Made by a program: the position numbers and the translations under genes. From Escherichia coli (GTDB lineage Bacteria > Pseudomonadota > Gammaproteobacteria > Enterobacterales > Enterobacteriaceae), in the NCBI RefSeq assembly GCF_003334315.1, contig NZ_QOWR01000002.1: DNA of 64,000 bases. One strand, written 5' to 3'. Numbering within the stretch: the first letter of the stretch is position 1; the number at the start of each line of letters is the position of its first letter. Of this stretch, positions 47,340 to 47,510 are shown one piece after another. The notes under the pieces are model-generated. The model ran no database searches. It saw nothing but the letters and a program-made list of their open reading frames with translations, and was not told the origin of the DNA.

Positions 47340-47510
47340 TTATTCTACCTTTTCGGCTGTCTCTTCTCTCGTACTGTTTAAGTATTTGTTCCGCGCTTCA
47401 AGCAGTGCGTCTCTGTCCTGGCGAAACGCCCGACAATAACGTTTCAAATGCAGGAAATAACCCACCACAACCAGAGCAATCAATACAATCCAGTACCAGG
47501 CGATAAACAT
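47340..47510 (-). CDS. Putative small single-pass membrane protein (56 aa)
   Basis: ORF MFIAWYWIVLIALVVVGYFLHLKRYCRAFRQDRDALLEARNKYLNSTREETAEKVE; AAGGG Shine-Dalgarno 7 nt upstream of ATG at 47510; one predicted TM helix followed by charged tail. Confidence 0.45.
   Translation of the reverse strand: MFIAWYWIVLIALVVVGYFLHLKRYCRAFRQDRDALLEARNKYLNSTREETAEKVE

Follow-up and report, generated by a model that had tools for sequence, protein, structure and literature searches.

YqiD, a conserved small membrane protein of Escherichia coli encoded between zupT and ribB

The window considered here is a stretch of DNA of 64,000 nucleotides from Escherichia coli. Around zupT, the order of the genes is ygiD (minus strand), zupT (plus strand, ending at 47282), a gap of 489 nt, ribB (minus strand, 47772-48425), an FMN riboswitch (48529-48677, 120.9 bits) and ubiK, and the segment ygiD-zupT-ribB-ubiK is that of E. 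coli K-12. The gap, which extends from the zupT stop (47282) to the ribB stop (47772) and was rightly put at about 490 bp in a sequence-only reading of this DNA, contains a small gene, yqiD, that is located on the ribB strand and is convergent with zupT. The gene and the elements that delimit it are listed below.

47340..47510, minus strand: yqiD coding sequence, 56 codons from the ATG at 47510 plus a TAA stop at 47340-47342
47518..47522, minus strand: yqiD Shine-Dalgarno AAGGG, assigned by sequence; TAAGG is invariant in a 16-sequence leader alignment that includes a second subfamily
47292..47322, minus strand: intrinsic terminator 3' of yqiD, between the convergent yqiD and zupT genes, with a 13-bp stem, 6 GC pairs and a T-rich tail ATGTTGTTTT
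47710..47741, minus strand: ribB terminator at the upstream edge of the yqiD transcription unit, a hairpin overlapped by a sub-threshold Rfam match to STnc240

Translation of the yqiD frame on the minus strand yields the 56 residues MFIAWYWIVLIALVVVGYFLHLKRYCRAFRQDRDALLEARNKYLNSTREETAEKVE. The Shine-Dalgarno motif AAGGG is separated from the ATG by 7 nt (TAAAAGG), and the sequence bears out the earlier description of a 56-codon minus-strand ORF (47510 to 47340) with this spacing. In a mechanical list of ORFs the frame reaches back to a TTG at 47534 (64 aa). Translation starts from the ATG at 47510; the TTG extension would include the Shine-Dalgarno sequence, and the ATG is also the start given in RefSeq and in the literature. 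Two other statements of the sequence-only reading need correction. It had placed the ORF just upstream of the ribB terminator, whereas the start of the ORF lies on the same strand about 200 nt downstream of the ribB hairpin (47741-47710) in the direction of transcription. It had also described the gap as lacking annotation, but in RefSeq precisely this stretch of 171 nt carries the annotation yqiD.

The identity of the gene follows from several sources. When the gap was compared by megablast with 5,426 complete genomes of E. coli, all of them matched, with 'yqiD: protein YqiD' as the underlying feature, and the RefSeq CDS in the K-12-type record consists of the same 171 nt under the same name (WP_000469266.1). 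In Table 1 of VanOrsdel et al. (2018, Proteomics 18:1700064; PMC6001520), yqiD is listed with the flanking genes zupT / rib, the orientation > < <, the position 3183381-3183551 and a length of 56 aa; the YqiD protein of the window (MFIAWYWIV…AEKVE) is 100% identical to this entry and to the RefSeq yqiD CDS. Compared to E. coli K-12 YqiD there is no difference in the 56 amino acids, the zupT / ribB flanks, the strands (> < <) or the 171 nt. The locus identifier b4756 is given in a 2026 paper (PMC13273102). YqiD is among the 36 small proteins that were detected in LB cultures by immunoblotting after an SPA tag had been added to the 3' end of the gene in the chromosome; the gene is reported positive in tetracycline-stalled ribosome profiling as well, and most proteins of its group are reported to be abundant (PMC6001520). 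The ribosome profiling and SPA tagging that were suggested as checks in the sequence-only reading had thus already given a positive outcome, and its interpretation as a small membrane protein is supported by a 56-aa YqiD protein that has been detected. Altogether, the ORF is very probably yqiD (b4756), a genuine and previously validated protein-coding gene. It is also an already known one, having been named and mapped, shown to be translated in 2018 and annotated in RefSeq. The gene called yqiD in Bacillus subtilis, an ispA-type homologue in isoprenoid/menaquinone synthesis, has only its name in common with the E. coli gene and is unrelated. Most literature matches for 'yqiD' concern this B. 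subtilis gene.

yqiD is monocistronic and constitutes a separate transcription unit between two terminators. As terminator-like hairpins are found on both sides, a promoter belonging to the gene itself is to be expected within the intervening 200 nt. The yqiD upstream region is one of 18 non-coding regions that were put in GFP reporter fusions, and for a variant in this region the direction of the expression effect was the same in GWAS, in a promoter model and in the reporter assay (preprint, 10.1101/2025.06.10.658842). The region upstream of yqiD thus has promoter activity.

The YqiD family is very small: when 1.84 billion cluster representatives were searched with a profile, no more than 24 reached E<=0.001. 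Among 5.8 billion proteins, 108 relatives were retrieved, all of which are from Escherichia, Citrobacter, Salmonella or metagenomic contigs. Some homologues, in records from Salmonella and Citrobacter, are labeled DUF4051, a label that stems from the source records (NCBI/UniRef names) only. They are 56-58 aa long, are encoded at the same locus as yqiD and are 63-80% identical to YqiD, with which they share the transmembrane (TM) helix and the KRYC(R/K)AFRQDRDALLEAR motif, while the sequence of the tail differs. A genome scan in which each GTDB species was represented by a single genome yielded 30 loci, distributed over Escherichia, Citrobacter, Salmonella, Intestinirhabdus, an Enterobacter sp., Phytobacter and Kosakonia. 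In 30/30 of these species-level loci, and also in L036 and L043-L045, the yqiD frame starts with ATG and is intact; the remaining five frames contain stops in most sequences. For codons 1-44, pS amounts to 0.5-0.9 and pN to 0.07-0.14, with a Fisher p of 1e-8 to 1e-17 per pair in seven representative pairs; in Citrobacter and Salmonella, compared with the window sequence, pS is 0.5-0.9 and pN 0.08-0.14. Wherever dS is estimable, omega lies at about 0.05-0.14 in comparisons with Escherichia, Citrobacter and Salmonella; Phytobacter and Kosakonia give 0.21-0.25. A pooled analysis of 21 sequences puts pN/pS at 0.10 for codons 1-44, i.e., the TM helix plus the KRYCRAFRQDRDALLEAR helix, and the pooled value for the tail is 0.59 (58-aa forms). 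Codons 1-44 are therefore under strong purifying selection, with a tail that is nearly unconstrained, as judged from these substitution patterns.

These data also bear on the idea that the ORF is a chance frame, or that it reflects pervasive translation of a functionless spacer between ribB and zupT. The ORF is indeed short, AT-rich and devoid of a domain match, and in an AT-rich gap 56 open codons could by themselves be due to chance. However, the frame is intact in seven genera in which the other five frames are mostly stopped, the amino acids are conserved in spite of saturated synonymous sites, and there is experimental detection of the protein (PMC6001520), so that a chance origin has next to no probability. 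That yqiD is a real gene follows from the intact frame in 30/30 loci together with the overwhelmingly synonymous substitutions in codons 1-44. Loss of the frame in related species, which the sequence-only reading had named as evidence that would speak against the gene, is not what is seen.

Within E. coli, yqiD is present in 5425/5426 complete genomes. The K-12-type allele is found over >=80% of its length in 4430 genomes. A second allele, present in 987 genomes, has 80-90% nucleotide identity and another tail (…AARSKLDKRSDKEVFEKHQ); in sampled records it is 80.7% identical over the first 108 nt. A handful of copies is truncated by IS1.

Three parts can be distinguished in the YqiD protein.

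47451..47507, minus strand: TM helix, codons 2-20, FIAWYWIVLIALVVVGYFL, with a Kyte-Doolittle mean of 2.43 over 19 residues and an AlphaFold2 helix at pLDDT 84-88
47379..47450, minus strand: basic/charged juxtamembrane helix, codons 21-44, HLKRYCRAFRQDRDALLEARNKYL, with a net charge of +4; predicted to be cytoplasmic by the positive-inside rule
47343..47378, minus strand: variable charged tail, codons 45-56, with a net charge of -2 and a pLDDT of about 54-70; it differs between the two E. coli alleles

Hence the protein has one strongly hydrophobic helix followed by a charged tail, as the sequence-only reading had proposed from the translation. Charged residues are absent before the helix and five K/R are present in the 11 residues after it, a distribution that predicts an N-out/C-in orientation according to the positive-inside rule. 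YqiD would therefore be a bitopic inner-membrane protein of which the N-terminal 20 residues are the sole membrane span. The N-terminus would hardly enter the periplasm, and residues 21-56 would form a cytoplasmic helix. AlphaFold2, run with a 29-sequence alignment, models one continuous helix of residues 2-55, with pLDDT values of 84-88 for the membrane-spanning part and 54-73 for the rest. The model is a featureless helix, and its confidence is only moderate outside the membrane span.

M1, A28 and R30 are the same in all 29 family members, and I3, W5, W7, R24, R33 and A35 are nearly invariant. The family signature is (K/R)R-x-C-(R/K)-A-(F/Y)-R-(Q/H)-(D/E)-R-(D/E)-A, and the motif CRAFRQDRDA is retained as far as Phytobacter and Kosakonia. 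Judging from its conservation, the unit under selection is probably the TM helix plus (K/R)R-x-C-(R/K)-A-(F/Y)-R-Q-D-R-D-A-L-L, with the last ~12 residues forming a loosely constrained charged tail. A helical wheel places Y25, A28, F29, L36, A39 and Y43 in one narrow hydrophobic stripe, with conserved charges alongside. Such a stripe (Y25-A28/F29-L36-A39-Y43) would be compatible with helix-helix packing.

Searches of NCBIfam, Pfam, PADLOC and PDB with YqiD gave no significant match. The Pfam family DUF2621 came up with a best i-Evalue of 8e-4 (19.8 bits, model positions 8-57 of 139), below the threshold for membership. It reached E<=0.001 in only 2/18 family members and was judged to be driven by the TM helix. 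A Pfam-A scan of YqiD and 18 members gave no hit to DUF4051, a family that may be absent from the current library. A metal site formed by H21 and C26, which are part of CHMKRYC in Citrobacter and Salmonella, was considered as well, an idea that came from the neighboring zupT gene. Neither residue is invariant in the family: across the 29 members, S, Y or R also occurs at position 26, and A, Y, C or R at position 21, and this variability argues against a fixed metal site.

YqiD has the features of a known class of proteins, namely fewer than about 60 residues, a single predicted TM helix and no enzymatic domain. AcrZ and MgtS are enterobacterial membrane proteins of this class: they have fewer than 60 aa, a single TM helix and no enzymatic domain, are independently transcribed and, lacking catalytic capacity of their own, bind to larger proteins. 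AcrZ is moreover predicted to be N-out/C-in with its TM helix at the extreme N-terminus, as in YqiD. No sequence similarity is known between YqiD and AcrZ or MgtS, however, and the conserved charged RAxRxDRDA helix has no known counterpart in them. In analogy with these two proteins, and since it has no enzymatic domain, YqiD would be without catalytic activity and most likely work by binding a larger protein. It may be a membrane-anchored accessory or regulatory subunit of such a partner, with the TM helix and the invariant face of RAxRxDRDA as its contacts, and it could possibly form a coiled-coil-like dimer by means of the hydrophobic stripe. As a mechanism class, a role as accessory or regulatory subunit is proposed with middling confidence.

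Two conserved features, a leader and a palindrome, were found when the upstream regions of 31 loci were aligned.

47511..47575, minus strand: AT-rich leader (…GTGAAATTT·TA·CG·TAAATGTTTA…TGTTAAAT·TTAAGGGTAAAAGG), conserved in primary sequence across genera and in the second subfamily
47613..47628, minus strand: palindrome TATGATCAAAATCATA, with its centre ~110 nt upstream of the ATG; candidate operator/promoter element of yqiD

RNAalifold on 16 leader sequences gave no consensus pairs and no conserved secondary structure. A hairpin sequestering the Shine-Dalgarno region, or an RNA thermometer, was rejected: in E. coli the minimum free energy structure does pair the Shine-Dalgarno sequence, but with z = -1.8 and 13/200 shuffles performing as well, and the RNAalifold consensus is empty.

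The leader is relevant to another explanation, namely that YqiD is a type I toxin-like membrane peptide of the Hok/TisB/Ldr style, the synthesis of which is normally repressed. YqiD resembles type I toxins such as Hok, TisB, Ldr and Ibs in size and in the combination of a small, very hydrophobic N-terminal helix with a charged tail, and the long conserved AT-rich leader would be in line with such a system. Unlike these toxins, the tagged protein is readily detected in growing cells, in ordinary LB cultures (PMC6001520), and unlike copy-number-variable toxin loci, yqiD is a single-copy, syntenic core gene under strong purifying selection with an omega of about 0.1. Furthermore, no Rfam antisense or sRNA family overlaps the gene (an antisense RNA partner, if any, would be a novel one), the 16 leader sequences have no conserved structure, and the PADLOC search was without hit. 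Because of the ready detection of the protein, the single-copy core status of the gene and the absence of an antisense RNA match or conserved leader structure, a type I toxin is very improbable.

The palindrome has the aligned form TATGATC(A/G)AAATCATA. Its ATGAT-N4-ATCAT core is exact in 26/27 loci of the Escherichia/Citrobacter/Salmonella clade, with one mismatch in L027, and persists even in loci in which other DNA has taken the place of the sequence further upstream. In the whole 64 kb, the complete 16-mer is found a single time (expected 0.06). The left half of the palindrome, TATGAT, is also the -10 of the sole sigma-70-like match in the gap. The palindrome is of the TGA-N6-TCA type that is typical of CRP/FNR, and matches the FNR (TTGAT-N4-ATCAA) and CRP (TGTGA-N6-TCACA) cores at 8/10 positions each and the CRP 22-mer at 14/22 (top 16 window positions), but the conserved discriminating base is A/T in both half-sites, versus the G (CRP) or T (FNR) expected. 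From its position and conservation, it is a candidate operator or promoter element of yqiD. An FNR-like 9/10 match, TTGATCATAATGAA, overlaps the palindrome; its outer half-site is apparently not conserved in Citrobacter.

A second element of the same type is located at zupT/ygiD.

46438..46459, core 46445-46458, no strand assigned: second ATGAT-N4-ATCAT element GATAACAATGATGATGATCATC in the divergent promoter region of zupT/ygiD

In the 64 kb, the yqiD and zupT/ygiD sites are the only exact matches to the core (expected 0.12), and the zupT/ygiD element is conserved in nearly all loci of the Escherichia/Citrobacter/Salmonella clade. The zupT/ygiD element matches the Fur-box consensus at 14/19 positions in four overlapping registers, which places it in the top 8 of about 128,000 positions. 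The yqiD palindrome reaches 12/19, a score equaled or exceeded by 164 window positions. Distant genera have neither of the exact palindromes; by eye, a near-canonical Fur box is found in them by the zupT ribosome-binding site. Reg-Seq did not report any regulator site for the zupT promoter of E. coli and cites evidence of its constitutive activity. One regulator common to both palindromes is possible, and no more is claimed for it, since the zupT/ygiD site is Fur-like whereas the yqiD site is not, and since Reg-Seq has no zupT site.

The pair of palindromes is one of the elements from which a role for YqiD at zupT could be argued, i.e., as a modulator of the adjacent metal importer ZupT that tunes zinc/iron uptake. 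MgtS and MntS modulate their transporters in this way. yqiD is the convergent neighbor of zupT and shares a terminator with it, in the window as well as in 30/30 loci and in L036 and L043-L045. In addition, a ZupT(1-70)::YqiD-like fusion is encoded on one metagenomic contig. Against this stands that convergent genes do not share a promoter and that the adjacency is explained by vertical inheritance of ygiD-zupT-ribB. The fusion contig resembles an inversion or assembly chimera, as the 3' end of zupT follows on the opposite strand. The different Fur-box scores of the two palindromes and the constitutive expression reported for zupT weigh against this role as well, as does the occurrence of family members away from zupT in L041/L042, L035 and L037-L039. 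A function as modulator of ZupT is consequently quite unlikely, and as a binding partner ZupT is a doubtful candidate, weaker than the Dsb/AssT proteins that are found next to yqiD in relatives.

In all loci of the genome scan, the genes are ordered as ribB> … yqiD> <zupT ygiD>, with a distance between ribB and yqiD of 0.2 to 3.7 kb. The long ribB-yqiD gaps contain dsbI-dsbL-assT on the opposite strand, which makes assT and yqiD divergent neighbors; elsewhere, namely in E. whittamii, E. albertii and some E. coli, it is a fimbrial operon that fills this gap. yqiD is directly divergent from assT-dsbL-dsbI in L009, L012, L014, L015, L021, L023, L024, L025 and L044, and the taxa with this pair are six Citrobacter species, Intestinirhabdus and S. 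enterica subsp. arizonae, besides L044. Decayed assT/dsbI remnants lie beside yqiD in L018 and in S. diarizonae (L022). A second subfamily (P0113, P0115, P0117), characterized by RRWRE-containing tails, is likewise divergent from assT-dsbL-dsbI, at a position between ygiD and ygiC. In L035 and L037-L039, the family member lies between assT and ygiC, with the Dsb/AssT block and not with zupT. In L041/L042, ribB and zupT are ~63 nt apart without a small gene between them, and the sole family member is located beside dsbL-dsbI; in L041, it remains there despite the decay of assT. These arrangements indicate that, through rearrangement, the small gene remained linked to the Dsb/AssT block and not to zupT. 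Statistically this linkage is weak, as one rearrangement could explain both contexts.

Two apparent cases of additional family copies did not hold up. A decayed second copy in the assT-ygiC gap of E. coli was suggested by tblastn (E 0.01) and by visual inspection of the alignment, but is not supported, as 174/500 shuffles reach the local DNA alignment score. Weak tblastn matches downstream of ygiD in Citrobacter and Phytobacter were rejected, since they correspond only to the antisense strand of the 3' part of ygiC, with which the long P0117 tail overlaps. In Escherichia carrying the assT block, zupT-ygiD separates the block from yqiD, and no intact second family copy was found next to assT in these genomes.

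The neighborhood suggests that YqiD could be an accessory factor of the periplasmic AssT/DsbL/DsbI module for aryl-sulfotransfer and oxidative folding, or of DsbB-type enzymes, which K-12 retained after loss of the module. In favor of it are the divergent adjacency to assT-dsbL-dsbI in two chromosomal contexts (in Citrobacter, Intestinirhabdus, S. arizonae and others), the decayed remnants beside yqiD in L018 and L022 and the persistence of the small gene with dsbL-dsbI in L041. Many genomes without the module nevertheless keep yqiD under purifying selection, among them K-12, Phytobacter, Kosakonia and several Citrobacter. A role with AssT/DsbI can therefore not be the whole story. Moreover, module-bearing Escherichia have yqiD apart from the module, the apparent remnant of a second copy being statistically unsupported, and the predicted topology leaves almost no YqiD in the periplasm, the site of AssT and DsbL. 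Such an accessory role is accordingly rather unlikely. As for the partner that the proposed accessory subunit would bind, gene order makes the DsbL/DsbI-AssT module or a DsbB-type membrane oxidoreductase the best genomic clue, albeit a weak one of low probability.

A combined interpretation would go further. YqiD may be the membrane-anchored fourth part of an ancestral assT-dsbL-dsbI unit, or more generally a partner of DsbB/DsbI-type oxidoreductases; in the Escherichia/Citrobacter/Salmonella clade it would be controlled by a regulator that recognizes ATGAT-N4-ATCAT and acts at the zupT/ygiD promoter as well. This is a long shot, but if true, it would connect a small membrane protein both with metal import and with the way in which phenolic compounds are handled.

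yqiD is no discovery; its remaining value is that of one of many validated E. coli small membrane proteins without an assigned function. For this function, the leads from the AssT/Dsb neighborhood and the palindromes are only suggestive. The analysis does provide a number of pointers: the TM helix and the RAxRxDRDA cytoplasmic face are selected, the tail is evolutionarily dispensable, and the gene belongs to the core of E. coli. Furthermore, AssT/DsbL/DsbI is the most persistent non-trivial neighbor of the family in relatives, and a conserved palindrome marks the promoter region.

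In the 64-kb window, the palindrome ATGAT-N4-ATCAT occurs as an exact match only twice (0.12 expected), and both sites lie in the neighborhood of yqiD (b4756) and zupT. The upstream features considered here, in window positions, are the following.

47613-47628, palindrome ATGAT-N4-ATCAT, preceding the yqiD ATG by ~110 nt
46445-46458, palindrome ATGAT-N4-ATCAT, in the zupT/ygiD divergent promoter region
46438-46459, Fur-like element GATAACAATGATGATGATCATC, zupT/ygiD intergenic region, 14/19 to the Fur-box consensus
47534 (region 47511-47534), minus strand, TTG in frame with and upstream of the yqiD ATG
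47703-47773, minus strand, match to STnc240, a candidate sRNA of Salmonella

Both palindromes are kept across Escherichia, Citrobacter and Salmonella; in more distant genera, neither site is present as an exact match. In Phytobacter, Kosakonia and related loci (L031-L033, L036, L043, L045), the palindrome's place is taken by another conserved element, CTACTTATAAAGTGGTA, which has a TATAAA -10-like core and precedes the small gene by ~60-90 nt. Because of this replacement, the promoter architecture upstream of the YqiD-family gene differs between clades.

The Fur-like element at zupT reaches its 14/19 score in four overlapping registers, which rank among the top 8 of ~128,000 window positions. 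In four of the relatives' loci (L036, L041, L043, L045), zupT instead carries what is read from its sequence as a near-canonical Fur box beside the Shine–Dalgarno region, e.g., GATAATGATTATCATT. In E. coli, zupT is reported to be constitutive, and no transcription factor site was seen at this gene by Reg-Seq.

At the 3′ end of ribB, the Rfam match to STnc240 is full-length but sub-threshold, scoring 29.1 bits (E = 0.075) where the gathering score is 55. As both the ribB stop codon and the terminator fall inside the match, this stretch may represent a ribB 3′-UTR-derived RNA.

Many metagenome gene calls (P0001-P0004 and others) are 65-84 aa long, exceeding the 56-aa YqiD protein, and align to it from an internal position only (e.g., residues 19-73 of P0002). 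N-terminal extensions of YqiD would include the conserved Shine–Dalgarno sequence, and the extended calls look like mis-called starts.

The YqiD-family gene and the assT-dsbL-dsbI block, encoding an aryl-sulfotransferase and Dsb oxidative-folding proteins, are immediate divergent neighbors in two chromosomal contexts, i.e., the ribB/zupT gap and the ygiD/ygiC gap. Some of these loci carry a second YqiD subfamily (P0113, P0115, P0117) with RRWRE within the tails, which is very rare in protein databases; P0113 retrieved itself alone from 5.8 billion sequences. The leader of these genes is similar to that of yqiD. L041 and L042 have just ~63 nt separating ribB from zupT, and their small gene adjoins dsbL-dsbI.

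L009, L012, L014, L015, L021, L023, L024, L025, L044 (~430-3610 in most), assT-dsbL-dsbI beside a YqiD-family gene
L035, L037-L039, L041-L042, further loci with this arrangement
L035 1498-1722; L037 3951-4112; L041 5055-5213, second-subfamily genes

In one 2-kb metagenomic contig (L034, 1499-2027), ZupT residues 1-70 are joined in frame to a YqiD-like C-terminus, and the zupT 3′ end follows on the opposite strand, a layout consistent with a zupT-yqiD inversion or an assembly chimera.

Within E. coli, 987 of 5426 complete genomes (~18%) carry a divergent yqiD allele that differs in its tail and has a nucleotide identity of only 80-90% (in sampled records, 80.7% over the first 108 nt). Where records were examined, the DNA between this allele and the expected ribB position holds a fimbrial operon (L002, 2145-2315 and 2897 onward; L007; L008; L047). 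The divergence far exceeds that expected of a within-species core gene, suggesting that this segment was imported.

In a few E. coli strains, IS1 truncates yqiD (L003, 2654-3446; L047, 2501-3343), and in genome record H1 (NZ_CP010231.1) it interrupts the zupT-ribB gap. These IS1-disrupted strains are natural knock-outs, usable for phenotyping.
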